DNA of 57,336 nucleotides from positions 1 to 57,336 of the forward strand of contig JAMWCL010000002.1 of the NCBI GenBank assembly GCA_023819035.1. Reading direction: 5' to 3'. Positions 2 through 57,336 of the stretch are shown here, piece by piece. Each line of letters starts with the position of its first letter. Within the stretch, counting starts at the first letter, position 1. Both the position numbers and the translations under genes were made by a program. Origin of the DNA: Candidatus Omnitrophota bacterium (lineage in GTDB: Bacteria > Omnitrophota > Gorgyraeia > Gygaellales > Profunditerraquicolaceae). Under the pieces are notes generated by a model that saw only the letters and a list, made by a program, of their open reading frames with translations, did not search any database and was not told where the DNA came from.

Positions 2-3000
2 TATGCTTGGAATATCCCGGTTAATTTCCAGAATATCTCAGAGACCTGTGTAATTAGATTGCGTAGTGGTAGTGTGGGTGGCGAAGGCACCGAGCTAACT
101 GCTTATTCCCCGCAATTTAAGATTCGAACAAAACTACTTCAGGTCACCTCACCGAGCTCAGGTGAGGTCTGGTATGTAGGGGATACTACCAAGAAGATTA
201 GATGGGAGGCAGAAAGTGGTAAGAAGAACGATGGAAGCTGGCCGAAGGTAAAGATAGAATACAATGTCAATGATGGAGCATTTAAACAGCTTATCCCTGG
301 TCAGGATGTAATCGTAGATTGTGTAAATGGATTAAATGAATATATCTGGACTGCCGGGGTAGCGGATGAAAAGAGTGATAAGATAAAGATAAGGATTTCC
401 TTTGTAGATTATTCCGATATAAGCATTACCTCGGATTATTTTACCATTTATCCGGTAATTAATATCCTCTCTCCCAATGCCGATTCTACAATTAAGGTTG
501 GCTCAAGCAATAACCCGGTAAGCTTCACCTATACGGGAAGCAAGATCACCTTGGTTAATGTTAGATACGATACTAATAATGGCTTAGGTGCAGATGGTCA
601 GCCTGCTACAGGAGATGAATTTGCCGGGGTAATCCAGGATAATCTTGCGGTAAGTGGTGGTTCAGCTGAGGTGATGTGGAATAGCATACCTGATGCCATC
701 TATCCTACCGCACAGATTAAGGTTAAGGTTTATGATACCCAGAATCCCAGCATCCAAGCAGAGAGCCAGGCATTTAGGATAGTGGGTAATTTAGTGCTTA
801 CTGCACCTTCTGGTCAGTCTACTAGCTGGACCGCAGGTTCTACTCAGAATATCAGCTGGAACTTCGGCGGAACCATGCGGGTAAATGTCTTTTATAATCT
901 GAATAGTGGAATAGGTAACTGGACACCTATTGCCCCGCTCTCCTACAAGGATGTCTCAGGCGTAAGCGGTTCAGCTACCCTAGCCTGGGATTTACCCTTG
1001 ATTGCTACCAATAAAGCACGTATCAAGTTGGAGGCAGAAGGCGACCCTGGGGTTTATTCCATAAGCCAGGAGGACTTTAAGATCGGTGCTAAGTTTGAGG
1101 TCTTGAATCCTGAGGATGGTGTCGCCCTTTATGTGGGTGATAATTATGAGATTACCTGGAATACCTTTGGTATCTCAGGGGTTAATTATGTAGCCATTGA
1201 ATACACCAATAATGACTCTACAGGTCAGACCTGGAATTCAATTACCACCAGTGCCCCTAACAGTGGAAGTTGGTCATGGATTGTTCCGGGAAGCTTAGCG
1301 GATTTATCTAATGATTGCCGAATCCGCATCTACCAGTATGACCCGGCTAATGAGATTGACAACACCGTAAACCTTGGAAGCGGGCTTGCCTTCCGCATCA
1401 AACCCAAGCTCATCTTTATTAATCCTAGCCCGCCTTTATCCTGGAGCATTGGTGAGCAACATCCGATTAAATTTAAGAAACGCGGTGCCATCCAGAAGGT
1501 AGATCTTTATTACTCCTACGACGGAAATCCGCTTAATTTTACCTATAAGATAAATTCCACTCCCATTGATATCTCAGGTTTAGCGGATGATACAGAATAT
1601 ACCTATGACTGGACGATTGCTGAGGATACACCTTTAACCCCAGGTTATACCGGTAAGATTAAGGTTAAGGTAAATGAGCCTGCCACCCAGACCTCGGTAG
1701 AGGCAGTACAGAGCAATACTATCGAGGTAAAAGGGCTACTTACCTTAAATACCCCCTCTGCTGAAGGGATTTCTATGGTCTATACCGGTCCAAATTATAT
1801 GATTACCTGGACACCTGTAGGTCAGATTCAGGATGTAAAGCTTTATTATTCTACCAACGGCGGTTATCAAGGGGGTGGCTCCTATCCCGAGAGTAACTTT
1901 ATCACCCAGGTGGCTAGCTCCTTAGGTCAATATTCCTGGCCAGTTCCCGATAAGATCGGGGATAACCTGCGGATTAAGGTCTGCGATGCCAATAACTGTG
2001 AAGCGGTCTATGATGAATCGGATTATCCCTTTACGATCAAAGGAAAGCTTACCCTGGATGTTCCGGATACCCAGGGGATTATCTGGGAGGTAAATACCAC
2101 CCAACAGATCAAATGGACCCCCACCGGCACCTGGTCATCCGTAGAGATTCATTATGATACCGATGGGGATTTTTCCGACGGACAGAATACCTTTCCTTTT
2201 AAATCGACCGGTGCACTTACCCCTAATGATGGAATAGAGGACTGGATTGTTCCCGATAAGATTAGCAGTAATGTAAAGATAAGGATAAGGGATCCCGATC
2301 ATCCTGATGTGCAGGCGATCTCAAGCTATCCTTTTAGCATTGTGGGAAAGATTAACTCAGTCACCTCACCGAGCTCAGGTGAGGTCTGGTATGTAGGGGA
2401 TACTACCAAGAAGATTAGATGGGAGGCAGAAAGTGGTAAGAAGAACGATGGAAGCTGGCCGAAGGTAAAGATAGAATACAATGTCAATGATGGAGCATTT
2501 AAACAGCTTATCCCTGGTCAGGATGTAATCGTAGATTGTGTAAATGGATTAAATGAATATATCTGGACTGCCGGGGTAGCGGATGAAAAGAGTGATAAGA
2601 TAAAGATAAGGATTTCCTTTGTAGATTATTCCGATATAAGCATTACCTCGGATTATTTTACCATTTATCCGGTAATTAATATCCTCTCTCCCAATGCCGA
2701 TTCTACAATTAAGGTTGGCTCAAGCAATAACCCGGTAAGCTTCACCTATACGGGAAGCAAGATCACCTTGGTTAATGTTAGATACGATACTAATAATGGC
2801 TTAGGTGCAGATGGTCAGCCTGCTACAGGAGATGAATTTGCCGGGGTAATCCAGGATAATCTTGCGGTAAGTGGTGGTTCAGCTGAGGTGATGTGGAATA
2901 GCATACCTGATGCCATCTATCCTACCGCACAGATTAAGGTTAAGGTTTATGATACCCAGAATCCCAGCATCCAAGCAGAGAGCCAGGCATTTAGGATAGT

Positions 3001-6000
3001 GGGTAATTTAGTGCTTACTGCACCTTCTGGTCAGTCTACTAGCTGGACCGCAGGTTCTACTCAGAATATCAGCTGGAACTTCGGCGGAACCATGCGGGTA
3101 AATGTCTTTTATAATCTGAATAGTGGAATAGGTAACTGGACACCTATTGCCCCGCTCTCCTACAAGGATGTCTCAGGCGTAAGCGGTTCAGCTACCCTAG
3201 CCTGGGATTTACCCTTGATTGCTACCAATAAAGCACGTATCAAGTTGGAGGCAGAAGGCGACCCTGGGGTTTATTCCATAAGCCAGGAGGACTTTAAGAT
3301 CGGTGCTAAGTTTGAGGTCTTGAATCCTGAGGATGGTGTCGCCCTTTATGTGGGTGATAATTATGAGATTACCTGGAATACCTTTGGTATCTCAGGGGTT
3401 AATTATGTAGCCATTGAATACACCAATAATGACTCTACAGGTCAGACCTGGAATTCAATTACCACCAGTGCCCCTAACAGTGGAAGTTGGTCATGGATTG
3501 TTCCGGGAAGCTTAGCGGATTTATCTAATGATTGCCGAATCCGCATCTACCAGTATGACCCGGCTAATGAGATTGACAACACCGTAAACCTTGGAAGCGG
3601 GCTTGCCTTCCGCATCAAACCCAAGCTCATCTTTATTAATCCTAGCCCGCCTTTATCCTGGAGCATTGGTGAGCAACATCCGATTAAATTTAAGAAACGC
3701 GGTGCCATCCAGAAGGTAGATCTTTATTACTCCTACGACGGAAATCCGCTTAATTTTACCTATAAGATAAATTCCACTCCCATTGATATCTCAGGTTTAG
3801 CGGATGATACAGAATATACCTATGACTGGACGATTGCTGAGGATACACCTTTAACCCCAGGTTATACCGGTAAGATTAAGGTTAAGGTAAATGAGCCTGC
3901 CACCCAGACCTCGGTAGAGGCAGTACAGAGCAATACTATCGAGGTAAAAGGGCTACTTACCTTAAATACCCCCTCTGCTGAAGGGATTTCTATGGTCTAT
4001 ACCGGTCCAAATTATATGATTACCTGGACACCTGTAGGTCAGATTCAGGATGTAAAGCTTTATTATTCTACCAACGGCGGTTATCAAGGGGGTGGCTCCT
4101 ATCCCGAGAGTAACTTTATCACCCAGGTGGCTAGCTCCTTAGGTCAATATTCCTGGCCAGTTCCCGATAAGATCGGGGATAACCTGCGGATTAAGGTCTG
4201 CGATGCCAATAACTGTGAAGCGGTCTATGATGAATCGGATTATCCCTTTACGATCAAAGGAAAGCTTACCCTGGATGTTCCGGATACCCAGGGGATTATC
4301 TGGGAGGTAAATACCACCCAACAGATCAAATGGACCCCCACCGGCACCTGGTCATCCGTAGAGATTCATTATGATACCGATGGGGATTTTTCCGACGGAC
4401 AGAATACCTTTCCTTTTAAATCGACCGGTGCACTTACCCCTAATGATGGAATAGAGGACTGGATTGTTCCCGATAAGATTAGCAGTAATGTAAAGATAAG
4501 GATAAGGGATCCCGATCATCCTGATGTGCAGGCGATCTCAAGCTATCCTTTTAGCATTGTGGGAAAGATTAACTCAGTCACCTCACCGAGCTCAGGTGAG
4601 GTCTGGTATGTAGGGGATGAGAATAAGGAGATCCGATGGGATGCTACGGGAACCGTAACCCATGTGGATATTGCCTATAAAACCTCCCTAGGCGGAGCTT
4701 ATAACACTATCGTGGCAGGTGACCCTGGTCACAGCGCAGGTGCTAATTCCTATAGCTGGCCTGTGGTGGGAGATATCAAAAGCGAAACCGTCTACATCCG
4801 TGTCTGTCCCGCAGGCACAGAGGAAAGATGTGCAGAATCTGCTGAATTTAAGATTAGACCCAAGATTACTGTCACTATTAATGACGCAGATGGCCGGCTC
4901 CCAGTTGGCTCTTATATAGATACCCCATTAATTAAATGGACCTGCTCTAGCCAATCCCAAACCCCGAGCGTTAATGTGCTTTATGACCTTTATAATGGAA
5001 ATGGACCCGATGGTCTTCCTAATACAAATGATGAATATCAAGGGGTAATTGCTAACCTGGTACCGGTAGGAGCAGGAAGCACGGGTATTCCTTGGTACAA
5101 CGATGGTCAGGGTGTACCTGATGAAATGACCTCTCAACCGACCTTAAAGATTAAGGTAGTAGATAGCAGTTCACCGAGCGTATTTGGTTTATCTAATGTT
5201 CCTTTAAAGATTGTGGGTGATTTAACCTTACTTAAACCTACCACGGGTGGAGCGGAGAATGGTGAGTATCTTAAGGTAGGTCAAGACTTTCTTATTCAAT
5301 GGGCAAAGAAAGGAACTGCTCTAACCCAGGTGACCTTATGGTATTCGGATGATGGTGGTCAGGATGGATTTGTGCATCCAATTCTTCCTTTAGGAACAGA
5401 ATATATTCCTGCTGGCTCAACCGGTGGGCAATATACCTGGGTGAATATTCCTAATACTACTTCCAATAATGTGATTGTACGCATATCTGATTATAATGAC
5501 CCAGAGACCAAGGCATTCTCACCGGCTATACATATCCAGTCTATTTTAGATATTAGAACCCCGGATGGAGGCGAGACCTGGGCAGCGGGAGATGATCGGG
5601 AGATTATCTGGACAGTCTCAGGTAAGACCCGTTATGTTAAATTACAATATGCAATTAATGGCGGTGGTGCAAATGATACCTGGTACGATATCGCAGAGCA
5701 TGATAACCAGAATACCTGGACAGCACCACCTGATCCACCCGCAGAGTTTAGTTATTTATGGATGAATATCCCTGAACAGGCAGTTTCTAACAATGTAAAG
5801 ATTAGGGTAATAGATAAGGCAGATGAGGAGAACTGGAATGAATCAGCCAGTGTATTCAGGATTAGACCTTCAGTGACGGTAATCTCTCCTAATGGAAACG
5901 AAGAATGGCTGGTGGGTTCAACTCAATATATAAAGTGGTCGCTTAAAGGTACGGTAAATGTGGTTGATGTATTATATTCGGTAGATGGAGGAAATTATAA

Positions 6001-9000
6001 CTATATCTTATACCAAGGTCAGCCTGCAGATAATATCCCTGCCTCTTTAGGAGGCGGAGAGGGGCTTGCCTGGGAGATTCCTAATGAGGTTTCTTCTCAG
6101 GTAAGGATAAAGATAATTGGAGATAATGATGTAACAATAGTAGATACCTCCGATACTAATTTTAAGATTGTTGGTCAAATAAACTTTAGTCCAGCGGTCC
6201 CTGCTCCGGGTGATGAGGTTTGGTATGTGGGCACAAATAAGACAGTAGGTTTTACAAAATTAGGCCAGATTCCTACCCTAAAATTACAATATTGTACCAA
6301 TGATATCTGCACAGGTGAGGGTGATTGGACAACTATTCCGGGAGCAGAAAATATTACCGAACTCAGTCATCAATTTGTTATCCCTGATGCTCTCGGTCAG
6401 GGGGTAAGGATACGCGCAGCAAGTGCGGATCCTAATCGTCCGGCTATTCCCGCGGTCTCCGGGTCGATAGAGATTGCGGATATTATCACGATTATCTCGC
6501 CCAGCGGTGATGAACGCTGGCCAGTAGGCACCACCCAGGCGATTGAATGGAAGACCAATGGAAGCTTAGCCAATGTGAAGATTGAGTATTCTTTAGATGG
6601 GACTACACAGCCCATCGAATGGGTAAGCCCACCGATTACTAACTCTACCCCTTCTAATTCGCAAGGCCAAATCATTACCTTTAACTGGCCTATCTCTGCA
6701 GGTGCTACTACTACCAGTAAAGCAGTAATTAGAATTAGTGATGCTAATCCCAATACTGGAACCCAATCAGCAATCTCTAATCTCTTTAGAATTGTAGGAA
6801 GTTTTATCTTTACCTCACCCACCTCCAGTTCAGTATGGCCGGTGACCCAGGGTTATATCAATAATCCACCCCAGACGATCTCCTGGACAACCAACGGCGT
6901 TATTCCTTTGGTGAATTTATGGTATTATTCTACTTCTGGACCTCAACCGGGAACATTTGTAAAGATTAATGATCAACCTATAAATGTGCAGGGAACAAGT
7001 GGAAGTTATCTCTGGAATGTTCCTGATGCTATTTCTAATGCGGTAAGACTGCGCATTGAAGATGCCACCGATCCTTATATTGATGAGGAACATCCTGGAA
7101 CCTCCCAAGTTTCCTCCACATTTACTATCTGTGGAGCATTACAGTTAATCTCGCCATTGGCAGGAACGGTACTTAAGGTTGCTCCTTCTCCTTTAACCCC
7201 GAATACTATATCTTGGAATTATAATGGTAGTTTAGGAAATCTAAATATCTTTTATTCCTTAGATGGTTGTAATGGTCCCTGGAGTCAGATTAATGCTTCA
7301 CCGGTTCCTTCAGTAGACCGTTCTTATTATTGGCAGACACCAGAAAATATTATGACCCCCAATGCCTGTATCAAGGTAGAAAATACAGAGAGTGGTTCAC
7401 TTTATGTAAAAAGTGATTCGGGAGGTGGCTTTAACATTGTGGCACGCATTGAGATAGATGAGCCTGACGCGGGAGATACTATCTTAGCGGGAGAGGATTA
7501 TGAGATTAGATGGAATAAGTGGGGAAGCGGTTGCCAATATGTAAAGATAGAGCTTTCTACCGACGGAATAAATTATGATAAAATAATTACGGAAAGCACA
7601 GGTGCAGATGTAGGTGCGTTTCTTTGGCTTAAGGATGCCCTGGTAAATGCCTCAGATAATATTACCAAGACCGCGCGCATCCGTATCTCTGATACAAATG
7701 CCGAGCTTCCCTCAAGTGCGGAATCGGGTCTATTTACCATCCAGGCACAATTTAGCTTTAATCCGATAGTTTTACCTTTAGAGGTAGGTAGCCAATATGA
7801 TATCGTCTGGACAAAGAAGGGAAATATCCCTTATGTGCTTTTACAGTACTCTACGGATAATTTTGAGGATGATAAGCGCAATGCGGTCACTAATATTAAT
7901 GGGGATACAACTACCTTAGTTCCTAATGTAGGTGGGCAGAATGATCCACCTTCTCGTGCAAGATATACCTGGACGGTTCCTGATATAATCGATCCTATGG
8001 ATATTAAAGGAATCCATCTCATTGGTGCAGACCAGGTAAAACTGCGTGTCTCCGATCCTAACAATTCCAATGCAGTAGCGGTTTCTAATGAATTTAAGAT
8101 CATTCCTAAGTTTAAGGTTACCTCTCCTGATGGAAATGCTGATCCTAATCTTACTGAGAGATTAAAGGTCGGTCTTCCTTATGAGATCACCTGGACATGT
8201 AGTTCAGACCAAACCAATGTTCCTTATGTAAGGATCCTTTATTCTACCACCGGAGGTCCTCCTTATGATAAGTTAATTACCTCTTCTACTGCAAACGACG
8301 GTTCCTATGCCTGGATTACTGCTAATGGCGGTGTGCCTAATGATATCTCAACCCAGGTCAGGATTCGTATTGAGGATGCTACGGACAGGGCTTATACCGC
8401 CTATGATGAATCCGATAATAACTTTAAGATTATTTCTAACTTTACCTTAAATACACCCAATGGCAATGCGGTCTATGAGGTGGGAAGACCTTGGACTATC
8501 TCTTGGTCGAATAAAGGCACAGTCAATAATGTGGAATTATCCTATTCTATTAACGGAGAAGATTTTAGTGATCCTATAATTATTGCCTCCTCCGTAGCTA
8601 ATAATCCCGATCCCATAAATGGCGGAGGAAGTTATGAGACAGTGGTGCCTAATGGAATAAGTTATAATGTGCGTGTACGGGTACGCAGTCTTACTGACGA
8701 TGGTTATGATATCTCGGATAATAATTTTAGAATCCGCGGTAGGATTGAGGATGTGGTAGTAAATAACAACCAGCCGGTTCCCATCCATCAGGATGTTCCG
8801 ATTACCTGGACTACTTATGGAACCGTTCCTTATGTAGATATTCTTTATGATCTTTATGATGGCAAGGGTTGTGATGGGACTGAAGGAACACAGGATGATT
8901 ACTGGAATCCTGGTCCGGATAAGGTTTGCGGAACCTCAGATGATTATCTAAATGTGATTGCCCTTAATCTACCCAATTGTATACCTCAGGCACCTGCCTT

Positions 9001-12000
9001 AAGCTGTAATGGGTCAGCTACCTGGACCTATGTTCCTGATGAACCCACTCCTTTGGGAAGAATTAAGATTTCTGATTCGCGTACCAATCCTGATAATACT
9101 GATGTAAAAGGGATCTCCCCAAGATTTAATATCATCGGTAATTTCACCATAATTTCACCCAATGGTAACGAAGATTTAAGGGTAGGAACCCAACATAATA
9201 TTACCTGGAGATGGGGTGGAACGATCCCTCAGGTAAGACTATTCTATACTAAAAACCCATCCCCTAATCCAGAAGATGTTCCGGAAAATGATTGGATTGA
9301 GATTGATCCTGAGGTAATTAAAGATTATAGCAATGATGGAAAGGGTGATGGTAGCGGTGACGCAGAACGTAGTTATCTTTGGACCGTACCCGATGATATT
9401 GCCCCTAAGGTAAGGATTAAGATTCAGGATTATAACGATCCGACAGTAAGGGATTACTCTGATAACTTCTTTAAGATTAGAGGTGCATTTACCTTAATTT
9501 CACCTAATGGCCATCCTGAGATTAACTTAGCGGAACGTTGGGTAACCAATGAGAAACACAATATTAGCTGGATAACCTACGGAACCATTCCTTATGTAAG
9601 ATTACAATACTCCAATGATGACTTTATCTCGGATATCCATGAGATAATTCCTGAGCCACCTTATACGGTGGCTAACTGTTTACCGCAAGCACCGGAATTG
9701 ACCTGCACTGGCTCTTATCAATGGACTATCCCCAACGCGGTTTTAAAGGATGATAAAGGTATGTATCTTAATTATAATGCAGTAAAGGTCCGCATTATTG
9801 ATCCTAATGACCCGCCTACCCAGGATGATCCAGGGGTAGCGGATGTCTCAGATAACAATTTTAAGATCGACCATTATAAGATTACCTGGAAGCTCTATGA
9901 TTTAACTACTGGTGAACCATTGACTAATTTATCTTATACTGAAAAGATTACCGGTACAGACATTGTGAATCGTACAGGTGGAGGTCTTACTACCCCGGTG
10001 ATCTTACCCACTACCTATGGAACCTGGACGACTACCTGGATTGCTTCCGGCTATGGTGAAAAGGGTCAGAACTTTGTTGCGGATAGTGACCAGAGCTTTA
10101 CCTTATTCCTGGAGACTACAGTAATTCATATCTGGCGGGCATATTCCGAATTTGCCTATCAACCTCCTGAGACTGAACCACCTACCCCGGATATCTTAAA
10201 TATAAGCTCCTGGTTAGAAAGGGATGGCGCGGTAGTCTCCGGTGCCGTAGTTCCCGATGTTTATCTCTACGATGGGTTAAGCTTAATAAAGAGATTAACC
10301 GCGATAAAGAACGAAGATGACCCTCAGCCCGGTAAGATTACCATCTATTACTGCCAGGATATTCCTTTAGGCGCAGTAGAGATCTGGGTCGGTCAAAGAG
10401 AAGACGGTACTGAGCGCACTGTTCAGGATATTGTTAATGAGGTAGCTCCTTGGATAGTGTCTCAGGAGACAATAAATGAGAGCGCCTTTACTGGATTCTT
10501 TAAACAGACCTGGACAGACACACCTCTAGAATCAGGAAAGGTCTATAATACCATTACTGATATAATGAATAAGAGTGGCGCTCATTTTAGAACCCCAGGT
10601 TCCTTTGAGATAACCGCTGCCAAGAGCCTACAAGAGATGCAGGCAACCGTAAACTCTGTGCTTAATAAACCGATTAGCGAGGTAAGCCAAGAGCTACAAG
10701 AGGCATTAAATACCCAGACCCAGCTAATTAATCAGATGATGACGGAGCAGACCAACATCATTACCCAGAAGACTAATGAAATGCAGGAGACGATAAATAC
10801 AACCATGGAAAGGTTTGAGAATACTACGCGGGAATCCTTGGATCTGTTAGCCTCAGGTGCAAAACAGGCAGTAGAAGCAGGTCAGACCTTGGAATACACC
10901 GCGTTAAAATATTCCTGGAAAGCAACCGTCTCACCCGATCCTGCCTTAGTCAACGATATGATTACCTTACAATGCCAAGGTCAACCCGGAAAGACACCCT
11001 TCTTAACTATTTATAGCTGGGATAACAAATATATTGTGCGCGATGTTCCTTTGAAGGAATCTAGCACCCCTGGTCTTTATATTTATGAGTTTAAAGCAGA
11101 CTCGCGTTTTACCCCTGGTAAAGCCTATACCTACACTATTATTGAGTATGATACCGATGGTTTTGTTACTGGTTCAGGTATGGTAGAAAGTATGTCGATT
11201 ACCACGGTAGCCGGTCTTGCTTCAGCTGCTCCTGAGGCGGAACGCGCAGCTAAAAATGCCTTAGAGGCAATTAAAGCGGTGGAGGCGGTCCTGGCTTCTG
11301 CAGATACAGCAAATGTGGCGTTAACCTTAAGAAATCTTAAAGATTCTATTGAGGCTTTACCAGCAGTTCTTATGCGCGAAGGTCCCACTGCCCGGATTGT
11401 TGAGGCGGTTAATAATATCAGTGAAAGACTAAATGTGATCTTAGGAGAAGAGGGTCTTGATTTAAGTACATTGTTAGAAGAGGCATTAAGCGAATCACCT
11501 ACCCTTAAAGAGATCCGCAAGAAGACCGACACCATAAGTATGATTATTGATTTACTTTTACAGATTGTAGAAGGGAAATTAGGTGGTTTAGATACTCCGG
11601 TGGTTTCTACCTCCCTTATTGCTGGCAGTGTAAGGTTTCGCATTGTGGCGGTTAACCCCTCTACCATTAAAACACATAAGGTTCAGATAAAGAATTATTT
11701 ACCTTTAGAGGTAAAGCCCAAGGATATTTTAGATTTAGGAGGTTTAGAATTAGAATACGATTCCGCAAAAGGAATATATTACTTATATAAACCTGATTTA
11801 GAATTAGCACCTAAAGAGGTGCGTATCTTTGAGGTAGAGGTGGAGGATATCTGGACGATCCCTGAATCTAAGATTAATGAATTAAAGAAGCATACCACGG
11901 ATATCCTTAAGCTTCTGGAGAAAACCAATTATTTTGCGGAAGCAAAGGCTGTCTCCGACAGTATCTATCGCAGTTTAGATGAGATTATAAAATCTCAGAA

Positions 12001-12328: not shown

Positions 12329-12353
12329 ATGCCTTTAAGTTAACTTTTTAAAA

Positions 12354-12390
12354 GGCAACCTCTTGTATAAAAAGGGGTTGTCTTTTTTAT
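12354..12390 (+). terminator. Rho-independent terminator downstream of the giant gene
   Basis: GGCAACCTCT (12354-12363) pairs with AGGGGTTGTC (12373-12382). That is a 10-bp stem with two G-U pairs and a 9-nt loop, followed by TTTTTTAT. Confidence 0.6.
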
Positions 12391-12419
12391 TTAGCATTTT
12401 TTAAAAATAGTGATATAAT
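12391..12419 (+). promoter_or_regulatory. Sigma70-like promoter for the ATPase operon
   Basis: TTAGCA (12391-12396), 17-nt spacer, TATAAT (12414-12419) preceded by TG at 12411-12412 (extended -10). The ATG at 12433 is only 13 nt after the -10 and no SD is visible. Confidence 0.5.
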
Positions 12420-12432: not shown

Positions 12433-12666
12433 ATGTTAGATGTAATTGTGGTCAGTGTCCAAAAGAGTATCTTTTCTGGTAAAGCAAAGAGTATAATCTT
12501 TCCAGGGGAAAAGGGGGTATTTGAGATCCTTCCCTTCCACAAGCCCATCTTAAGTAGATTAATCCGGGGAAATCTGGTTATCGACGGAAAAACCTTTTCT
12601 ATCCGAAGAGGAATTGTGGGGTTTAATTATAATAAGGCTTATATAGTTATAGAAGAAGATGGATAG
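12433..12666 (+). CDS. atpC: F-type ATPase epsilon subunit, beta-sandwich domain only (77 aa; the C-terminal helical hairpin is absent)
   Basis: The sequence VSVQKSIFSGKAKSIIFPGEKGVFEILPFHKPILSRLIRGNLVI matches the epsilon N-terminal consensus (lpg.eGe.giLp.H.P.l..L..G). The stop overlaps the next ATG (ATGGATAG). Confidence 0.75.
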   Translation: MLDVIVVSVQKSIFSGKAKSIIFPGEKGVFEILPFHKPILSRLIRGNLVIDGKTFSIRRGIVGFNYNKAYIVIEEDG

Positions 12667-35992: not shown

Positions 35993-35993
35993 G

Positions 35994-37380: not shown

Positions 37381-37381
37381 G

Positions 37382-39389: not shown

Positions 39390-39426
39390 TTTGTTCGTAA
39401 GACTGTCCCTTTTAGGAGGTTAAAAG

Positions 39427-40689: not shown

Positions 40690-40720
40690 ATCAAGGCAAT
40701 AGTCCCTTTATAAGATAAGG

Positions 40721-41287: not shown

Positions 41288-41290
41288 AAG

Positions 41291-43895: not shown

Positions 43896-43924
43896 AAATT
43901 CTTGATTGAAGGAGGAAAATAAAG

Positions 43925-45469: not shown

Positions 45470-46644
45470 TGATTACCCAAGAGATTGAAAGACAACTTGC
45501 GATAATTAAACGTGGGATAGAAGAGATAGTCTCAGAAGAAGAATTAAGACAGAAGCTAAAAGAAAGTTTAAAGAGCAAAAGGCCATTAATAATAAAAGCA
45601 GGTTTTGACCCCACTGCTCCAGATATCCATCTGGGCCATACCGTACTTTTAAGAAAGATGCGTCAATTCCAGGAGTTAGGCCACAGGGTTATATTTTTAA
45701 TCGGTGATTTTACCGGTCAGATTGGTGACCCTACTGGTCAAGATAAGACCCGTAAACGCCTAAGCGAAGAAGAGGTAAAAAGGAATGCCTTAACCTACAA
45801 GAAACAGGTATTTAAGATCTTAGATGAAAAAAAGACCGAGGTGGTCTTTAACAGTAGTTGGTTTAAAAGGATGAGCTCAACTCAAATCCTGGAATTATCC
45901 GCACATACTACCTTAGCCCAGCTTTTAGCCCGCCACGATTTTAACCAGCGTTACAATCAAGGAAAGGATATCTCCCTTTTGGAGTTCTTTTACCCTTTAC
46001 TTCAAGCTTATGACTCCGTTTATTTAAAGGCAGATGTAGAGATTGGCGGGATCGATCAGAAGTTTAATCTCTTATTAGGCAGAGAACTACAAAAAGATTT
46101 TGGCCAGAACCCTCAGGTTATCATTATGCTTCCTCTTTTAGAGGGAACCGATGGTCTGCATAAGATGAGTAAATCCTTTGGTAATTATATTGGTATTGAT
46201 GAACCGGCTAATGAGATGTTTGGAAAGATTATGTCTATCTCAGATGAACTGATGCTTAGATATTATACCCTTTTAACCGATGAAGACTTAAATTTAATTA
46301 AAAATATGCATCCTAAGGAAGCAAAATTAAGATTAGCTGAGCTTATGGTTAGCCAATACCATTCCCAAGAGAAAGCCCATAAAGCGCGTTTAGAATTTGA
46401 GCGGGTCTTCAGTCAAAAAGAGGTACCTCAGGACATCCCGCTTTATAAACTCTCTTTAAATGAGACCATCTTAGATATCCTTACTAAAGCTGGCCTGGTT
46501 CAGACTAAAAATGAGGCCAGACGTCTAATTAAACAAAAGGCAGTTACCCTTAATGAAAAAATAATTGATAATGAGAAGGCAGTGATTGTAACCTGTGGCA
46601 TTTTAAAGGTAGGCAAAAGACGCTTTTTAAAATTAGAAAGATGA
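45469..46644 (+). CDS. tyrS: Tyrosine--tRNA ligase
   Basis: HLGH, GGIDQKFN, KMSKS, and a C-terminal S4-like domain (EARRLIKQKAVTLN). Confidence 0.9.
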   Translation: MITQEIERQLAIIKRGIEEIVSEEELRQKLKESLKSKRPLIIKAGFDPTAPDIHLGHTVLLRKMRQFQELGHRVIFLIGDFTGQIGDPTGQDKTRKRLSEEEVKRNALTYKKQVFKILDEKKTEVVFNSSWFKRMSSTQILELSAHTTLAQLLARHDFNQRYNQGKDISLLEFFYPLLQAYDSVYLKADVEIGGIDQKFNLLLGRELQKDFGQNPQVIIMLPLLEGTDGLHKMSKSFGNYIGIDEPANEMFGKIMSISDELMLRYYTLLTDEDLNLIKNMHPKEAKLRLAELMVSQYHSQEKAHKARLEFERVFSQKEVPQDIPLYKLSLNETILDILTKAGLVQTKNEARRLIKQKAVTLNEKIIDNEKAVIVTCGILKVGKRRFLKLER

Positions 46645-47642
46645 GTTCGAAGCGTCACTACCTTATCGATAATCAAAACCGTCTTATCGTAAAGCAAAAA
46701 GATAAAAGATTACTACCCCAAGGAAATTTTTCTGTAGATAAACATAACCACCTTATCTATCATCTCAATGAGCCTTTTAGCTGGCGTAGGCAATATGGTT
46801 CTGGCAAAAAAATCTGTTTCTTAGGTAACTGGAGGCTTAATCCTAATTATGACTTAGAGATGATTTTAAATAAGACCAACACTCAGTTTGCTCAAGATCG
46901 GCTTACCCTTAAAGGTGAGATTATCTCCGTAGAGAAAGATAGTTTAATCTTTGAAACCCACAGTATTGATAAATATGGGCAAAGCCATATCCAGCTGATT
47001 AAGCTAACCGGCTTCTGGAAGGCAGACCAATATAATCGGCTCTGCTTTGTAGTAAAAAAAGAAACCCAACCCGATATCCTTGTCTTTAAGGGCACCTGGC
47101 AGATAAACCAGAATCAAAAGATTACTTATACCTATGAAAAAACGGATTTAAAGACCCAAACCAAGCATTTACATACCCTGGTCTTTGAAGGGTTCTGGGA
47201 GATTAATGAAAGGAATAGGCTTACCTATATCTTATCTAAAGGCATAGATTCTCGCTTTGATTTTCGTGTGCAGATGGAGAGCCCAAACCTTTATCCGCAG
47301 GATAAGGCTATAAGATATCGGATTGGTATAGGCCTAAGAAAACAAAGGTATAAAATTATTTGTTTATACGGGACCTGGAAATTTAGTAAAATATCCAGCC
47401 TTTTATTTTTAATAGATTATGGAAGAAATCAGCTCCAAGCCATCGAATTCGGTTTAGTCTATAACCTTACCCGGAAAGAACAAATAGAATTTTTATTAAC
47501 TAACAAACAGAAACAGCCCTTAGGTTTATCGATTACCTTTAGTCGCAAGTTATTAAGGGATTCTGAAGCCAAGGGATTTTTAAGGCTTAAGGACATAGAG
47601 AAAGATAAATCTATTGAGGCGGGATTGCGCATTCCCTTTTAA
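46641..47642 (+). CDS. Hypothetical protein with about seven ~45-aa beta-strand repeats
   Basis: Recurring motif: GNWRLNPNYDLEMIL, GFWKADQYNRLCFVV, GTWQINQNQKITYTY, GFWEINERNRLTYIL, GTWKFSKISSLLFLI. ATGA overlap with the tyrS stop. No signal peptide or TM. Confidence 0.6.
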   Translation: MSSKRHYLIDNQNRLIVKQKDKRLLPQGNFSVDKHNHLIYHLNEPFSWRRQYGSGKKICFLGNWRLNPNYDLEMILNKTNTQFAQDRLTLKGEIISVEKDSLIFETHSIDKYGQSHIQLIKLTGFWKADQYNRLCFVVKKETQPDILVFKGTWQINQNQKITYTYEKTDLKTQTKHLHTLVFEGFWEINERNRLTYILSKGIDSRFDFRVQMESPNLYPQDKAIRYRIGIGLRKQRYKIICLYGTWKFSKISSLLFLIDYGRNQLQAIEFGLVYNLTRKEQIEFLLTNKQKQPLGLSITFSRKLLRDSEAKGFLRLKDIEKDKSIEAGLRIPF

Positions 47643-47724
47643 TTAAGGATAAAGTTTATTAGGTTATTTAACCTATATTGGGATTTTTGAGACCGTAAGA
47701 ACCCTAATAAGCTAAGGAGGCGAT

Positions 47725-48720
47725 ATGGCTAAAAAGGCATTAATTACCGGGATTACTGGTCAGGATGGTTCATATTTAGCGGAGCTACTTTTAGAAAAGG
47801 GTTATAAGGTCTACGGGATAGTAAGAAGGGTTGCCTTTGAAGACTCCGAGCATAGACTTTGGCGGATAAGACATATCATAGATAAGCTCACCTTAGAGTC
47901 AGGCTCTTTAGAAAGCTATGCCAGTATTTTTAAGGTGATAGAGAAGGTAAGGCCTGACGAATGCTATCACTTAGCTGCCCAGAGCTTTGTGAGCTATTCC
48001 TTTGAGGATGAATTCTCCACTTTAAATATAAACATAAATGGAACCCTTTATATGCTGGCAGCCATTAGAGAAAAGGCGCCTAAATGTAGGTTTTATTTTG
48101 CGGGAAGCAGTGAGATGTTTGGATTAGCAAAAGAAAGCCCTCAGAATGAAGATACACCTTTTCATCCCCGTTCACCTTACGGAATCTCAAAGGTAGCGGG
48201 ATTTGATTTAACCCGAAACTATCGGGAATCCTATGGTCTTTTTGCTGTCTCAGGGATTTGCTTTAATCACGAATCCCCCCGCAGGGGCTTTGAGTTTGTC
48301 ACGCGTAAGATCTCTTATACTGTGGCTCAGATTAAATTAGGCCTTGCTAAGGAACTGCGTATCGGAAACATAGAAGCAAAGAGAGACTGGGGTTTTGCTG
48401 GGGATTATGTTAAGGCAATGTGGCTTATGCTTCAGCAGGATAAACCTGAGGATTATGTGATTGCCACAGGCGAAGGTCATTCGGTAAAGGAATTTCTGGA
48501 ATTAGCCTTTAGTCATGTAGGGCTTAACTGGAAGAAATATGTGGTGGTAGATAAACGGTTTTACCGACCTGCGGAGGTCTATAACCTGGTAGGAGATTAC
48601 AGTAAAGCCAGAAAAAGGTTGGGCTGGAAGCCAACGGTAAGATTTGTCGATCTGGTAAAGATGATGGTGGAGACAGACTTAGAGCGTTTAAAGAAAAGAC
48701 CGATGGATAAGCATGCTTAG
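47725..48720 (+). CDS. gmd: GDP-mannose 4,6-dehydratase
   Basis: ALITGITGQDGSYLAELLLEKGY, YGISK, FNHESPRRG; SD AAGGAGG. Confidence 0.93.
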   Translation: MAKKALITGITGQDGSYLAELLLEKGYKVYGIVRRVAFEDSEHRLWRIRHIIDKLTLESGSLESYASIFKVIEKVRPDECYHLAAQSFVSYSFEDEFSTLNININGTLYMLAAIREKAPKCRFYFAGSSEMFGLAKESPQNEDTPFHPRSPYGISKVAGFDLTRNYRESYGLFAVSGICFNHESPRRGFEFVTRKISYTVAQIKLGLAKELRIGNIEAKRDWGFAGDYVKAMWLMLQQDKPEDYVIATGEGHSVKEFLELAFSHVGLNWKKYVVVDKRFYRPAEVYNLVGDYSKARKRLGWKPTVRFVDLVKMMVETDLERLKKRPMDKHA

Positions 48721-52140: not shown

Positions 52141-53340
52141 ATGGCCTATTTCCGATATGAGATTGTTGATCACACAGGAAAAAAGATGAAGGGTATAATG
52201 GAAGCAAGGGACCGTGCCTCTTTAATTAATAGTTTTAAGAAAAGCCAATATGTGATTATAAGTTTAACCGAGATAAAGGAACTCTATACAAGAAAAAGGG
52301 CGAAGATAAAATTAGCAGATTTGGTTCTTTTTACTCGACAGTTAGCAGCTTTGATTAAAGCAGGGGTATCCCTCGTAAAGAGCTTAGATATACTTTTTGC
52401 TCAGGTAGAGAACCGCTATTTAAAGGAGGTTATCTCTTCGATGACTGCCCGCATTCAGGCAGGAGCAAGCCTTTCCGGAGCAATGGCGACTTATCCCGAG
52501 ATATTCTCCTCCTTATATCTAAATATGATTAAGGCAGGTGAATTTAGTGGTTCTTTAGATGTAGTTTTAGAGAGATTGGCAAGTTATCTAGAAGGAATGA
52601 TTAAACTTGCTCGTAAGGTAAAATCAGCAATGATCTATCCTGCGGTGGTTATCACGGTAGCGATGCTTATTACCGCGGTAATCTTTTTAAAAGTAATCCC
52701 GGGCTTTGAAGAGATATTCTCTTCTTTACAAGCCCGCCTTCCTATTCCTACCCGTATCGCCCTTAGGATTAGTCGATTCTTCCGGGAAAATCTTCTCTAT
52801 ATTTTAGGAGGTCTTATTATTCTTATTGGAGCCTTAAGGGGTATAATCCACCTACCCAAGATACGCCTGTTTCTAGATAGATCTGCACTTAAAGCTCCGG
52901 TAGTAGGAAGGATTATTCGTAAGGTAGTAATTGCCAGGTTTACCCGCACATTGTCCACCTTGGTAAAGAGTGGTATCTCCATCATCCCTGCGATAGAGAC
53001 CTCGGCTAAGACCTCAGGAAATATAGTGGTAGAGCAGGCGCTAAACAAGATAGCTAATAAGGTAAGTAAGGGTGAGAAGATCGCGGATTCCATGGCAGAG
53101 TATGAGATCTTTTCTCCCATGGTAATTAATCTCATTGGCGTAGGTGAGGAGACGGGTGATATCTCTACGATGTTAGATAAGGTTGCCTCTTTCTATGAGG
53201 AGGAGGTAGATGTGGCGGTTTCCAATCTAACCTCTTTGATTGAACCCTTTATCATTGTCTTTTTAGGGGTTATCATCGGTGGAATCGTCTTAGCAATGTT
53301 CTTACCCATCTTACAGATCACCCAAATCATTGGAAGGTAA
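52141..53340 (+). CDS. gspF: GspF/PilC-family platform protein
   Basis: 399 aa with two T2SSF repeats (FTRQLAALIKAGVSLVKSL; FTRTLSTLVKSGISIIPA) and three TM segments. Confidence 0.9.
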   Translation: MAYFRYEIVDHTGKKMKGIMEARDRASLINSFKKSQYVIISLTEIKELYTRKRAKIKLADLVLFTRQLAALIKAGVSLVKSLDILFAQVENRYLKEVISSMTARIQAGASLSGAMATYPEIFSSLYLNMIKAGEFSGSLDVVLERLASYLEGMIKLARKVKSAMIYPAVVITVAMLITAVIFLKVIPGFEEIFSSLQARLPIPTRIALRISRFFRENLLYILGGLIILIGALRGIIHLPKIRLFLDRSALKAPVVGRIIRKVVIARFTRTLSTLVKSGISIIPAIETSAKTSGNIVVEQALNKIANKVSKGEKIADSMAEYEIFSPMVINLIGVGEETGDISTMLDKVASFYEEEVDVAVSNLTSLIEPFIIVFLGVIIGGIVLAMFLPILQITQIIGR

Positions 53341-53994
53341 AGGTTCGAAGCGATAACCTAATCCATGGATGGTAAAGATATAGTTCTTTCCCAGTTTCTT
53401 ACGTAAGGATAAGATATGTGTATCCACTGTTCTGGTAGAAGGAAGGGTATGGTAGCCCCAAACCTGTTCTAAAAGTTCTTTGCGCGAGACCACCTTACCT
53501 TTATGGGAGACAAGGAAACGCAGTAACTTGAACTCTAAGAGCGATAACTTAATAGGTTTATTTTTCTTAAAGGCTTTATATCTTTTAAAATCTATCTCTA
53601 ACAATTTATCCTTGTAGCTTTCTACCCAAGAAGCCTCCTTTCTTCTCAGCACCGCCTTGATCCTTGCTTTAAGCTCCTCCAGGCTAAAAGGCTTGGTTAT
53701 ATAGTCATCCGCGCCCAATTCTAATCCCTTGACCTTATCTACTATCTGATTACGCGCGGTAAGTATAATGATAGAAGAGTCTACACCCTTTTCTTTTATC
53801 TGTTGACAGATTTTAAATCCATCTATATCAGGCAGGATAATGTCTAAAAGGATCAGATGTGGCTCTTGCCTTAAGGCAAGTTCAAGCCCGGTTTTTCCGT
53901 TAGTCGCCTCAAAGACTATAAAGTCCTTAGAAAGCTCGTCCTTAAGACCTAATAGTATCGCTGGTTCATCCTCGATTATTAAGAGTTTATACAT
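53311..53994 (-). CDS. OmpR/PhoB-family DNA-binding response regulator
   Basis: MYKLLIIEDEP, LILLDIILPDIDG, ITKPF, and a winged-helix C terminus (TRTVDTHILSLRKKL...GLGYRF). The Met at 53994 overlaps the kinase stop by 8 nt; the track ORF extends to 54060. Confidence 0.88.
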   Translation of the reverse strand: MYKLLIIEDEPAILLGLKDELSKDFIVFEATNGKTGLELALRQEPHLILLDIILPDIDGFKICQQIKEKGVDSSIIILTARNQIVDKVKGLELGADDYITKPFSLEELKARIKAVLRRKEASWVESYKDKLLEIDFKRYKAFKKNKPIKLSLLEFKLLRFLVSHKGKVVSRKELLEQVWGYHTLPSTRTVDTHILSLRKKLGKNYIFTIHGLGYRFEPLPSNDLGDL

Positions 53995-54955
53995 CGATAA
54001 TCTTGTGTTGAATGGGTAAGATAATCTTAAAAATAGTTCCTTTATCCTTCTGGCTTTCAAACTCTATTCTTCCATTATGCGCCCGTACGATCTGCTGGCT
54101 TAAAGCCAGACCCAGTCCTGTACCCTTTCCTTTATGATAAAATGGCTCAAAGATCCTTTTCTTTTCCTCTTCCTTTATGCCCGGCCCCTCATCCCTTACC
54201 TCAATAAATACCTCTTTCTCGTCTCCATAGAGGTTTATGGTTACCCTTCCTTCCTTGGGAGAAAACTTTAATGCATTATCTAAAAGGTTAAGGAATGCAC
54301 GACAGATTGCTTCCTTATCTAAATAGAGTTTAAGCGCTACCGCTAAAGATATGTTTATCTCTAATACACAGTCTGGCCTTAAGACCTTTATTGGATAGTT
54401 ATCAATCGCCTCTTTAATTACTGAGATTAAATCCACTTTTTCAAAATTATATTTTTCCTTTCCTTCCTGCAAACGAGAGAAATCCAGAATATTTTCAATA
54501 AGATGGCTGAGTCGGTAACTCTGGGTAAGAATAATATTAAGATATTCCTTCTGTTTATCTAATTCCTCAGGGCTAAGCCTGGTTAATCTTTCTGCAAGCA
54601 GGCGGATAGAGGTAAGGGGGGTCTTTAATTCATGCGAGACAACTGAAACAAATTCATTTTTTAGTTTAGTCAGTTCTAATTCCCTTTGGATATTCTTACT
54701 ACTTAATAGGCTGGCAATGATTAAGATTAAGATTAAAGAAAATACAATCATACTGAAGGAAAATATGCCTATTTTACTTAAGAAACTAAGCCAACCTGCT
54801 TCAGGTAAAGATCCCGCAGGGATATTTTTTAATAAATAATTAATAAGGTTATATTGTCTATGCAATGCCCAGATCGCCAGGATACTTAAGATGATACTGG
54901 GAATAATTACTGCGGACAGATATATATCGATTTTTTTTTCTCTCCAGGATTTCAT
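53987..54955 (-). CDS. Membrane sensor histidine kinase (2 TM, short loop, HisKA + HATPase_c)
   Basis: H-box FVSVVSHELKTPL, N-box LLDNALKFS, DEGPGI, GTGLGLAL. Confidence 0.88.
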   Translation of the reverse strand: MKSWREKKIDIYLSAVIIPSIILSILAIWALHRQYNLINYLLKNIPAGSLPEAGWLSFLSKIGIFSFSMIVFSLILILIIASLLSSKNIQRELELTKLKNEFVSVVSHELKTPLTSIRLLAERLTRLSPEELDKQKEYLNIILTQSYRLSHLIENILDFSRLQEGKEKYNFEKVDLISVIKEAIDNYPIKVLRPDCVLEINISLAVALKLYLDKEAICRAFLNLLDNALKFSPKEGRVTINLYGDEKEVFIEVRDEGPGIKEEEKKRIFEPFYHKGKGTGLGLALSQQIVRAHNGRIEFESQKDKGTIFKIILPIQHKIIDV

Positions 54956-56286: not shown

Positions 56287-57336
56287 ATGATTCCGCTTAA
56301 TAAATCTAATAAAGAAAAAGGCATGGTTTTAATCCTTACCTTCCTGGTAGCAAGTATTCTTTTAATTTTCACCGCTGGTTTTTTCTTACGGGCATTGAAT
56401 GAGCGCAGGTTAATTAATCTGCGCATGGAGACGGAAAGGGCGCTTCAGAATGCGGAAAAAGGAATAGCTTATGCCTACTTTGAATCTGCCCAAGAAGGAT
56501 GGACCTGGTTTACCCATCAATGGAATAATGGATTAGGAAGGCCCCAACCTTTGGCTTCTCCTCCTTCAGCTAACCGTAGCGATGTTCATTTTGTTTCAGT
56601 CAGTGATGATCCCTGCGGATTTCTTAAGGATGGAGAGTCCGGATCCAATCCTACCGCTGACCCTGATTATGGTTGTTATGCTGCTAATGATTGCACATTT
56701 GTTTTAAAGACATTCTCTGATCCTTTAGTAAAGAATATGACGGTAGTGCGGGTAAAAGGAATAAGCGGAAATGTGGTACGCACATTAGAATATCGGATAA
56801 GTAGATCAGCGATTTATGATTATGCCTGGTGGACAAATTATGACTTAAGGCTCAACAGTATAGGAGGCTATGTTAACGGTGGACGCATTCATGCCAATGG
56901 CAATATCTTTATGGAGAGCTGGATACGTCTACTTGGTGTAGATACAATCAGCACAGGCAAGGATAAAGGTATATACTATGCATGGAGTAATTATTATGCT
57001 CCCGGTTATTACGACTGGTATATAGATGGCAGTAGTAATATCAATGGTAGAATCCCCCTGCCTTCTTTAGAAAAAGCGAATGTTTTTTTAGGAGGATCTG
57101 CATATGTAAAAAGTTGGGCAGGTACAACCGCGGATTTACCAATTACTACGCAGGCTCCTTGGGTATATTTGGATAATAATATATATAAATACCGTGGATT
57201 TGCCTGGGAGTATGGTGTCTCTAGTGAGTCAGCGTGGCCACCGGGATGGATTTTAGATGAGGAGTTTCGTTTTTACGGAGATAGCGATCCAATTAATAAT
57301 ACAAAAGCTAACCGATACTCTTGGGTGAGCGGGACG
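56287..57336 (+). CDS. PilX-N-like large pilus-associated protein, 3'-truncated by the window edge (not in the ORF track)
   Basis: My own translation from the ATG at 56287 (SD AAGGAGG at ~56275) has no stop through 57336 (350 codons): MIPLNKSNKEKGMVLILTFLVASILLIFTAGFFLRALNERRL... It has a PilX-type N-terminal hydrophobic segment without the G/F cleavage motif. Confidence 0.65.
   Translation, partial: MIPLNKSNKEKGMVLILTFLVASILLIFTAGFFLRALNERRLINLRMETERALQNAEKGIAYAYFESAQEGWTWFTHQWNNGLGRPQPLASPPSANRSDVHFVSVSDDPCGFLKDGESGSNPTADPDYGCYAANDCTFVLKTFSDPLVKNMTVVRVKGISGNVVRTLEYRISRSAIYDYAWWTNYDLRLNSIGGYVNGGRIHANGNIFMESWIRLLGVDTISTGKDKGIYYAWSNYYAPGYYDWYIDGSSNINGRIPLPSLEKANVFLGGSAYVKSWAGTTADLPITTQAPWVYLDNNIYKYRGFAWEYGVSSESAWPPGWILDEEFRFYGDSDPINNTKANRYSWVSGT

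Follow-up and report, generated by a model that had tools for sequence, protein, structure and literature searches.

The 57,336-nucleotide stretch of DNA considered here (contig JAMWCL010000002.1 of the Candidatus Omnitrophota bacterium assembly GCA_023819035.1, positions 1 to 57,336, hereafter the window) is a piece of an Omnitrophota chromosome, and it carries the conserved 'F-type ATPase/type-IV-pilus-like' surface-organelle locus of that phylum. Its genes were mapped from a listing of open reading frames (ORFs), the larger minus-strand ones included, together with Pfam and NCBIfam scans. The locus begins with the 3′ part of a giant gene; behind it lie an F-type ATPase operon and a set of genes resembling type IV pili and the type II secretion system (T2SS), the last two being referred to below as module A. 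Its features are the following.

2..12328, plus strand: giant tail-anchored surface protein (ORF and translation; 5′ end cut by the window edge)
12350..12419, plus strand: terminator-like hairpin and promoter-like site (consensus matches only)
12433..12666, plus strand: ATPase epsilon subunit (Pfam ATP-synt_DE_N, E 2e-10)
12659..12871, plus strand: ATPase c subunit (Pfam ATP-synt_C)
12881..13606, plus strand: b-delta fusion (Pfam OSCP, residues 164-234)
13587-15065, plus strand: ATPase alpha subunit (Pfam)
15069-15911, plus strand: ATPase gamma subunit (Pfam)
15917-17317, plus strand: ATPase beta subunit (Pfam)
17329..17808, plus strand: stand-alone MshEN protein, MshEN_A (Pfam MshEN; mechanical ORF from 17245)
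17808..19925, plus strand: hexameric ATPase of GspE/PilB type with a C-terminal PilZ domain (Pfam T2SSE, MshEN and PilZ; NCBIfam GspE/PilB)
19929..21143, plus strand: GspF/PilC platform protein (Pfam, NCBIfam)
21193..29773, plus strand: lineage-variable signalling cassette (Pfam)
23518-24261, plus strand: REC-PilZ protein within the cassette (Pfam)
26635-28152, plus strand: extra GspE within the cassette (Pfam, NCBIfam)
29792..30655, plus strand: secreted zinc metalloprotease, Peptidase_MA_2 (Pfam; signal peptide; HEMAH motif)
30720-31115, plus strand: GspG (Pfam; NCBIfam)
31093-31485, plus strand: minor pseudopilin (Pfam)
31460-32047, plus strand: GspJ (Pfam)
31980-33062, plus strand: GspK (Pfam)
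33047-34540, plus strand: PilM-PilN fusion, GspL-like (Pfam)
34513-35097, plus strand: PilO/GspM (Pfam)
35112-35588, plus strand: signal-anchored protein of 158 amino acids (aa; conservation in relatives)
35585..36959, plus strand: DUF1573 Ig-like protein and M48 membrane protease (Pfam)

The likely start of MshEN_A is the internal ATG at 17329, just past the beta stop codon.

A fixed gene block made up of the giant gene, the ATPase and the MshEN-GspE-GspF pseudopilus genes recurs across the phylum. A GTDB scan with one genome per species gave 80 loci, almost all from metagenome-assembled or single-amplified genomes of Omnitrophota, onto which the window proteins were mapped, and a PilM-N profile scan supplied a second, independent set of 80 metagenome contigs from the Joint Genome Institute. 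Relatives were viewed with 10-kb flanks, and counts are over loci long enough to judge. The recurrent order is giant protein, epsilon, c, b-delta, alpha, gamma, beta, MshEN, GspE-PilZ, GspF and metalloprotease, continuing with the GspG, minor, GspJ and GspK pseudopilins, the PilM-N fusion, PilO and the 158-aa protein. Within the GTDB set the C-terminal module of the giant protein lies directly upstream of epsilon in 47 of 48 loci, and the genes after it are in place as follows (epsilon 51/52, c 55/56, b-delta 57/57, GspE-PilZ 58/58, GspF 53/54, metalloprotease 36/43). Two relatives with Pfam annotation, one of them on a 1.62-Mb contig, keep this order as far as PilM-N, with a 7,609-aa gene standing ahead of the ATPase. 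Among the 27 metagenome contigs with a full 10-kb upstream flank, the ATPase precedes the pilus block in 19 and is absent in two, the other six being unjudgeable on account of signalling inserts. The gamma subunit has some 240 relatives at E<=1e-5, the named ones all from Omnitrophota at 54-68% identity, and an exact-sequence look-up of the window's own gamma subunit returned no identical entry. Homologues of the giant module and of a PilB core encoded further downstream in the window are likewise named Omnitrophota or Omnitrophica.

The conserved block stops after the 158-aa protein, beyond which the metagenome set shows unrelated genes (CbiMNQO, an H+-pyrophosphatase or a formyltransferase). 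The DUF1573 and M48 protease genes are loosely associated with it, the pair recurring in two relatives after unrelated inserted genes. There (L088 16560-17252; L112 18481-19974) the pair is preceded by an unannotated ORF of about 400 aa that the window does not have. In some relatives a paralogous T2SS-like module without an ATPase operon directly follows the block (L126 4055-11765, L133 13203-20970), and L156 has an ATPase-less copy (1962-11939) with a secretin ahead of it.

The core of this finding was described in 2023, and the locus belongs to a known, uncharacterised kind. In their main text, Seymour et al. (2023, Nat Microbiol, PMC10066038) report a non-respiratory F-type ATPase adjoining type IVa pilus (T4aP) clusters in Omnitrophota, the two lying no more than 10 kb apart on 57 of 66 contigs and the enzyme being reported from all classes; they compare it to the type 2 and type 3 ATPases of Mycoplasma, propose a role in attachment to, or motility on, hosts, and treat giant ORFs as a separate trait. 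The window, itself from an Omnitrophota genome, fits that account, since beta ends at 17317 and GspE starts at 17808. The original prediction, which had held the combination not to be a described system, is thus overtaken by this published motor-pilus link. The same main text makes no mention of the missing subunit a, the variable c carboxylate, the truncated epsilon or the b-delta fusion set out below, nor of a fixed giant neighbour with its anchor module, the split MshEN or the PilZ fusion. A literature search for a-less F-type ATPases linked to pili gave nothing relevant beyond the Omnitrophota papers, whose searchable text nowhere reports the absence of subunit a, the variable c carboxylate, the fixed giant neighbour with its conserved anchor or the split MshEN, and the supplementary tables of Seymour et al. 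(2023) and of a 2026 preprint (bioRxiv 10.64898/2026.06.07.730766) yielded no usable per-genome atpB data. What is added here is a parts list, evidence against ion coupling, the anchor of the giant protein, a count of the c-di-GMP (cyclic dimeric guanosine monophosphate) sensors and a relocated cyclase.

The ATPase genes run in the order epsilon-c-(b-delta)-alpha-gamma-beta, and the operon contains no subunit-a gene. Against canonical F1 structures (Bacillus-type and others) alpha and beta reach 450-490 bits, and the catalytic motifs are intact both in the window (GGAALGKS and GERIREG in beta, SVSRIG in alpha) and family-wide, where the Walker A motif of beta is kept in 69/71, the GER(I/M)REG motif with the catalytic glutamate in 71/71 and the arginine finger of alpha in 62/62. 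The epsilon subunit, 77 aa long in the window and in the family median, is the beta-sandwich domain alone, its C-terminal helical regulatory domain missing. The b-delta fusion (241 aa; family median 242 aa) consists of a transmembrane helix at residues 1-19, a charged helical stalk and the C-terminal part of OSCP/delta. In the 70-aa c subunit the GRNPS loop, which docks gamma/epsilon, is nearly invariant in the family. The ion-binding carboxylate position, set by alignment with D61 of E. coli and E65 of I. tartaricus, is occupied by glutamine in the window; over 56 species this column holds glutamate in 26, glutamine in 26, leucine in two, alanine in one and phenylalanine in one.

Neither a tblastn match to the E. 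coli subunit a nor its arginine signature motif was found in the window and 2.15 Mb of related loci. The 80 loci with the closest gamma all share the a-less layout, and subunit a is present in none of about 160 loci. Median intergenic gaps inside the relatives' operons are 7-90 bp, and the rare larger gaps, considered as possible hiding places for subunit a, were rejected as such on finding that they contain nucleotidyltransferase-type or REP/IS200-like insertions. These foreign inserts leave the gene order undisturbed (a nucleotidyltransferase-type pair at L008 1351-3111, a REP/IS200-like ORF at L009 6791-7413), and one relative has two c-subunit genes in tandem (L079 988-1500). Because subunit a is lacking, the c carboxylate variable, epsilon truncated and the b-delta fusion short, ion translocation appears not to be the conserved function of a complex that would instead hydrolyse ATP, and these sequence features argue for an ATP-burning mechanical motor rather than a synthase.

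With canonical F1Fo the complex shares homologues of alpha, beta, gamma, epsilon, c, b and delta, together with intact catalytic motifs and c-loop, and it differs in the absence of subunit a from the operon, the glutamine at the c carboxylate position, the 77-aa epsilon, the single b-delta fusion and the gene order. From the N-ATPases (atpDCQRBEFAG) it is set apart by gene order and by the lack of AtpQ, AtpR, subunit a and an Na+-type c subunit. The type 2 and type 3 clusters of Mycoplasma are not known to have Fo and stalk genes (c, b and delta), whereas the Omnitrophota operon keeps c, b-delta and epsilon, and its partner is a T2SS-like pseudopilus machine. The G1-ATPase of M. mobile (PDB 9io5) is an F1-derived ATPase with a role other than ATP synthesis, as the Omnitrophota complex would be; the window beta scores 333 bits to its beta as against 450-470 bits to canonical F1 betas, and the 60 best alpha hits include no G1 chain.

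The visible part of the giant protein amounts to 4,109 aa, ending in a single transmembrane helix and a short basic tail. Thirty tandem beta-sandwich repeats of about 95 aa (aa 52-3289) are followed by a non-repeat region of about 820 aa. The last 900 or so residues form a module of beta-sandwich domains and long helices that is conserved in 35 species, up to and including the terminal transmembrane helix, whose consensus IIFLGLLAGV is near-invariant. A simple anchor would not usually be so well conserved, which points to a specific partner in the membrane. An AF2 model of the module, with a mean local confidence (pLDDT) of 65 and a predicted template-modelling score (pTM) of 0.29, has beta-sandwich domains alternating with long helices; Foldseek matched the model only to generic adhesin, Ig, FnIII or macroglobulin-domain arrays at very low TM-scores that point to no specific function, and a PDB sequence search with the module gave only noise. 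The upstream ORF extends from its stop codon to the very edge of the sequence in 44 of 51 loci, and the family ranges from about 1.6 to more than 7 thousand residues; this range comes from a profile search of 1.84 billion representatives, whose 3,369 matches at E<=1e-30 are inflated by the repeat region and were used for size only. The N-termini of all 22 inspected representatives look truncated, as is that of the window protein, cut by the window edge. Within the giant gene, positions 143-2359 and 2360-4576 form an exact, 100% identical tandem duplication of 2,217 bp, equal to seven of the 30 repeats, which either arose very recently or is an artefact of the assembly. In the gap that separates the giant gene from epsilon there is a hairpin (12350-12386; 15 pairs and a T-run), followed at 12391-12419 by an extended −10 promoter-like site, and these two consensus matches suggest that the giant gene is transcribed separately from the ATPase/pilus genes. 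In gliding M. mobile the motor acts together with very large surface 'leg' proteins, to which the giant protein of the window bears a striking analogy.

Giant proteins of Omnitrophota have also been placed near T2SS/T4P-like and pilZ genes by West-Roberts et al. (2023, bioRxiv 10.1101/2023.11.21.568195), who proposed prey adhesion. In that preprint the giants lie behind a secretion locus that includes gspD and rcpC, the abstract ascribes to them multiple transmembrane regions and SecA-DEAD domains, and ATP synthase goes unmentioned; the window giant differs in being a single-pass, tail-anchored protein with Ig-like repeats and an ATPase downstream.

The machine encoded behind the ATPase resembles a T2SS in having GspE, GspF, GspG, GspJ, GspK, a GspL-like PilM-N and GspM/PilO, with prepilin-type N-termini on its pseudopilins; the GspG assignment is clear (NCBIfam score 144.5 against a cut-off of 88.85). 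It differs from a T2SS in that the block is without the secretin GspD, GspC and the prepilin peptidase GspO, and from T4aP systems in that the window has neither a PilT/PilU retraction ATPase nor the secretin PilQ. It departs from both in the secreted metalloprotease embedded in the block and in the PilZ domain carried by GspE. Neither the window nor the conserved block in relatives has a secretin, GspO, GspC or a PilT-type ATPase, and all four ATPases of the secretion/pilus type in the window classify as GspE/PilB, scoring 170-197 bits with the PilT family against a cut-off of 319. Secretins do occur in relatives, near the counterpart of a second pilus-like module (module B, described below) in L085 and near the ATPase-less copy in L156, and the secretin, GspC and the prepilin peptidase may be encoded elsewhere.

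Between GspF and the metalloprotease lies a recurrent insertion point, which in relatives holds nothing or differing sets of REC, kinase and REC-PilZ genes. In the window the cassette found there comprises a REC protein, a dCache-HAMP kinase, the REC-PilZ protein, a GAF-PAS kinase, two REC proteins, the extra GspE, a REC-REC protein and two more REC proteins. The extra GspE is full-length, scores 629.9 with its NCBIfam model against a cut-off of 630.25, and is found at that position in no relative.

Four credible c-di-GMP receptor domains, two MshEN and two PilZ, are supported at the motif level. The tandem 24-residue motif tested for MshEN, RLGxx(L/V/I)(L/V/I)xxG(L/V/I)(L/V/I)xxxxLxxxLxxQ, occurs in the two stand-alone proteins (17329-17808 and 48794-49243) and in no other; in MshEN_A the two copies read RLGEILLEKGLITEAQLYDALAEQ and FLGTILVTKGWITEHQLMEALAEQ, with a 5-residue spacer. 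The best PDB relatives of MshEN_A are the reference c-di-GMP receptors PilF (6f8l) and MshE (5htl), and the stand-alone proteins share the tandem motif with MshE of V. cholerae and PilF of T. thermophilus, which they match in these structures; the difference is that in the window the sensor has a gene of its own, immediately ahead of the ATPase gene. The PilZ motifs are RIYKR and NISAGG in GspE-PilZ and RVYQR and DISPDG in REC-PilZ, and family-wide RxxxR is kept in 59/61 and (D/N)xSxxG in 53/61. The Pfam 'MshEN' hits in three GspE proteins were rejected as sensors, since they cover the alpha/beta subdomain only, with the motif absent or degenerate. The four receptors named by the original prediction (two MshEN proteins, GspE-PilZ and REC-PilZ) are borne out at the motif level, the GspE N-domain hits not being counted. 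In module B the sensor is a clean split of a PilB-like protein; the module A sensor is additional to a GspE that retains only a degenerate N-domain.

We favour, with a probability of roughly 60%, the reading that the window holds a member of the published Omnitrophota ATPase/pilus loci and that its F-type complex would be an ATP-driven mechanical motor free of ion coupling, allied to a giant adhesin-like fibre and a c-di-GMP-gated pseudopilus. Judged from its genes, the complex would have its F-type rotor and stator complete except for the ion channel, with alpha3beta3, gamma, the short epsilon, the docking loop of the c-ring and a membrane-anchored b-delta all kept. The c-ring carboxylate would be dispensable, and the complex would hydrolyse ATP for torque or force in the membrane, neither synthesising ATP nor pumping ions. 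Its mechanical partners would be its conserved neighbours, the giant adhesin-like fibre and the T2SS-like pseudopilus machine, and the 900-aa C-terminal module and anchor helix of the fibre, conserved like an interaction surface, may be a point of contact. Assembly of the pseudopilus would be gated by c-di-GMP through the split-off MshEN sensor and the PilZ domain fused to GspE, with the lineage-variable two-component cassette probably adding environmental inputs. The likely role is attachment to, movement on or predation of other cells. The fuller version of this reading, in which an ion-independent rotary motor driven by ATP is coupled, by way of an inert c-ring or the b-delta stator, to the giant fibre and the pseudopilus through the C-terminal module and anchor helix, is offered tentatively, as a possibility rather than an expectation.

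Several points weigh against this reading. We infer purely from synteny that the ATPase, the giant protein and the pilus platform are in physical contact, and because a terminator-like hairpin parts the giant gene from the ATPase operon, the two may not be co-regulated. A gene for subunit a may lie elsewhere in the genome, and the c-ring glutamate kept in half of the family may mean that ion coupling persists in some lineages; alpha and beta are also very close to canonical F1, as their bit scores show. Lastly, with neither secretin nor prepilin peptidase in the conserved block, the passage of the fibre or pseudopilus across the outer membrane is unexplained.

An alternative is an ordinary chemiosmotic F1Fo ATP synthase whose subunit a gene lies elsewhere and whose adjacency to the pilus and giant genes is a conserved order without functional link. 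Split atp operons are known in other bacteria, and the catalytically intact, near-canonical alpha and beta and the glutamate in half of the c subunits are what such an enzyme would have. Alpha and beta are, moreover, present in 125 of 176 complete Omnitrophota genomes according to the 2026 preprint (10.64898/2026.06.07.730766), which itself calls the F1Fo sets of these genomes incomplete. Yet of 56 c subunits 30 carry glutamine, leucine, alanine or phenylalanine in place of the essential carboxylate, in a protein otherwise under constraint; epsilon is without its C-terminal domain family-wide, b and delta are fused at a short 242 aa, and subunit a is found at none of about 160 loci. The synteny with the giant gene and GspE, too, stays tight across 40-68% gamma divergence, and 'respiratory' and 'symbiotic' alpha clades are kept apart within the phylum in the main text of Seymour et al. 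(2023). An ordinary synthase is consequently an unlikely account, if the best surviving of the alternatives.

Slightly less probable again is an export energiser comparable to the F1-related FliI-FliH-FliJ of type III secretion, which would spend ATP on unfolding the giant protein or the pseudopilins or on feeding them into a translocon. FliH resembles a b-delta fusion and FliJ resembles gamma, so that the fusion stalk and the gamma-like central stalk would find a place in such a device, and the ATPase does adjoin both a substrate-like protein of more than 4,100 aa and a secretion-type machine. Against it, the hetero-hexameric alpha/beta, the epsilon and the c-ring with its docking loop make up a full rotor, needless for an unfoldase, and Pfam finds no translocon-gate homologue in the block.

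The original prediction joined the locus to a second pilus-like gene set, module B, near the 3′ end of the window, treating modules A and B, the giant fibre and the ATPase as one c-di-GMP-controlled system that lacks a cyclase. Module B and the genes beside it are as follows.

48794-49243, plus strand: stand-alone MshEN protein, MshEN_B (Pfam MshEN; motifs)
49255-50493, plus strand: PilB-type ATPase core without N-domain (Pfam, NCBIfam)
50496-52124, plus strand: second GspE/PilB (Pfam, NCBIfam)
52141-53340, plus strand: PilC (Pfam, NCBIfam)
53311..54955, minus strand: OmpR-type response regulator and histidine kinase (Pfam)
55103-55603, plus strand: pilin-like gene 1 (prepilin motif G|FTL(V/I)E)
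55605-56273, plus strand: pilin-like gene 2 (the same prepilin motif)
56287 to the window end (57336), plus strand: 3′-truncated ORF with an N-terminal hydrophobic segment

The PilB core without N-domain has many Omnitrophota orthologues of about 412 aa as well as unsplit relatives of about 575 aa. MshEN_B aligns to the N-terminus of an unsplit 576-aa homologue, so that MshEN_B and the PilB core together represent a split MshE-like ATPase. The order MshEN, PilB core, GspE, PilC is kept in four relatives (L084 to L087), and in all four an orthologous GGDEF-AAA_16-HEAT protein of about 1,360 aa, with an AGDEF active-site motif and an RxxD I-site, is encoded directly upstream of the module-B MshEN (L084 193-4281; L085 5405-9484; L086 5435-9517; L087 5420-9517). 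The window holds no trace of this gene, its position being taken by the GDP-mannose dehydratase, and the searchable text of the Omnitrophota papers contains no report of a GGDEF gene heading module B. Of the pilin-like genes and the 3′ ORF, weak orthologues follow PilC in L085, and the OmpR-type regulator and kinase are not conserved beside module B in relatives. The second pilin-like protein (55605-56273) combines its prepilin N-terminus with a C-terminal Trm112p-like zinc-ribbon hit (E 3.7e-5) and a weak match to the Verrucomicrobia 'Verru_Chthon cassette protein C', which is unusual for a pilin.

That both modules lie in one 57-kb stretch on one strand, that the pilus part of each begins with a motif-bearing MshEN protein, and that extra T2SS/T4P-like modules directly follow block A in some relatives all speak for a single system. 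In the relatives, however, module B orthologues sit in four different, unrelated neighbourhoods and never beside the ATPase within 10 kb, the modules trailing block A are not module-B orthologues, and a cyclase gene is present at module B in each of the four. On this genomic context module B was rejected as a part of the conserved block and is regarded as a separate unit, and a single system of A and B is improbable, somewhat more so than the export device. Module B is a second, independently conserved T4aP-like motor set, composed of a split MshE-like PilB, a second ATPase, PilC and pilins, whose usual first gene, the GGDEF cyclase, has been lost or moved from this position here. The absence of a cyclase thus stands as a description of the window and falls as a trait of the system; since the GGDEF gene heads module B in four of four relatives, the puzzle comes down to local loss or relocation.

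Least of all need a chance juxtaposition or an assembly chimera of unrelated genes be entertained, for although the exact 2,217-bp duplication in the giant gene might hint at assembly trouble, the block order recurs in about 100 independent genomes and contigs from many studies, which excludes it: the a-less atp-like operon, MshEN-GspE-GspF and the giant gene, whose co-occurrence the original prediction had singled out for checking, form one recurrent syntenic unit, and the idea that they fail to recur is decisively refuted.

Modules A and B are separated by one further feature.

37063..48720, plus strand: housekeeping block, outside the system (Pfam)

It contains, in order, rplU, obg, proB, proA, nadD, rpe, a gene of the phosphoglucomutase/phosphomannomutase family, a plsC-like gene, rpsA, tyrS, a gene of no known kind and the GDP-mannose dehydratase gene. 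The rpmA gene (L27) usually sits between rplU and obg, and in the window rplU (L21) is directly 5′ of obg (37063-38335) with no rpmA between them. The 333-aa ORF between tyrS and the GDP-mannose dehydratase gene (46641-47642) matches no Pfam family. GC skew is positive in all 2-kb bins of the window (1-57336), which, with 46 co-oriented genes, is consistent with a leading strand throughout. The window contains no tRNA, no Rfam family and no c-di-GMP riboswitch, and none of its ORFs, minus strand included, has a Pfam match to GGDEF, EAL, HD-GYP or ATP-synt_A.

As a description of the sequence, the original prediction was accurate in its list of elements and their positions, all of which are present. 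Its 46 consecutive plus-strand coding sequences are exact when epsilon and c are counted, its housekeeping block of about 12 kb does separate the modules, and GGDEF, EAL and HD-GYP genes are indeed missing nearby. The ATPase without subunit a and the tail-anchored protein of more than 4,100 aa (4,109 aa with one C-terminal transmembrane helix) were likewise correctly seen, as were a pilin set and two-component genes of its own in each module. The statement that each module starts with MshEN, GspE and GspF holds for the genes but not for their arrangement, as module A opens with the ATPase operon and module B has two ATPases between MshEN and GspF.

Omnitrophota are ubiquitous, uncultured nanobacteria suspected of being predators or parasites of other microbes. 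The locus is among the most conserved multi-gene blocks found around these genes, and a published co-location now becomes a defined list of parts: a channel-less rotor and stator, a giant fibre with a membrane module, a pseudopilus platform and c-di-GMP sensors, the true number of which is corrected while the 'no cyclase' puzzle is resolved. The glutamate/glutamine polymorphism of the c subunit offers a natural experiment on the role of a c-ring once ions are no longer carried. If the ATPase is the force generator, it would be the second F1-type mechanical motor after that of Mycoplasma gliding, and the first to keep its c-ring. Should the coupling of this motor to fibre and pseudopilus prove true, the locus would encode a kind of bacterial surface organelle not previously characterised, turned on by c-di-GMP and serving in attachment, gliding or predation.

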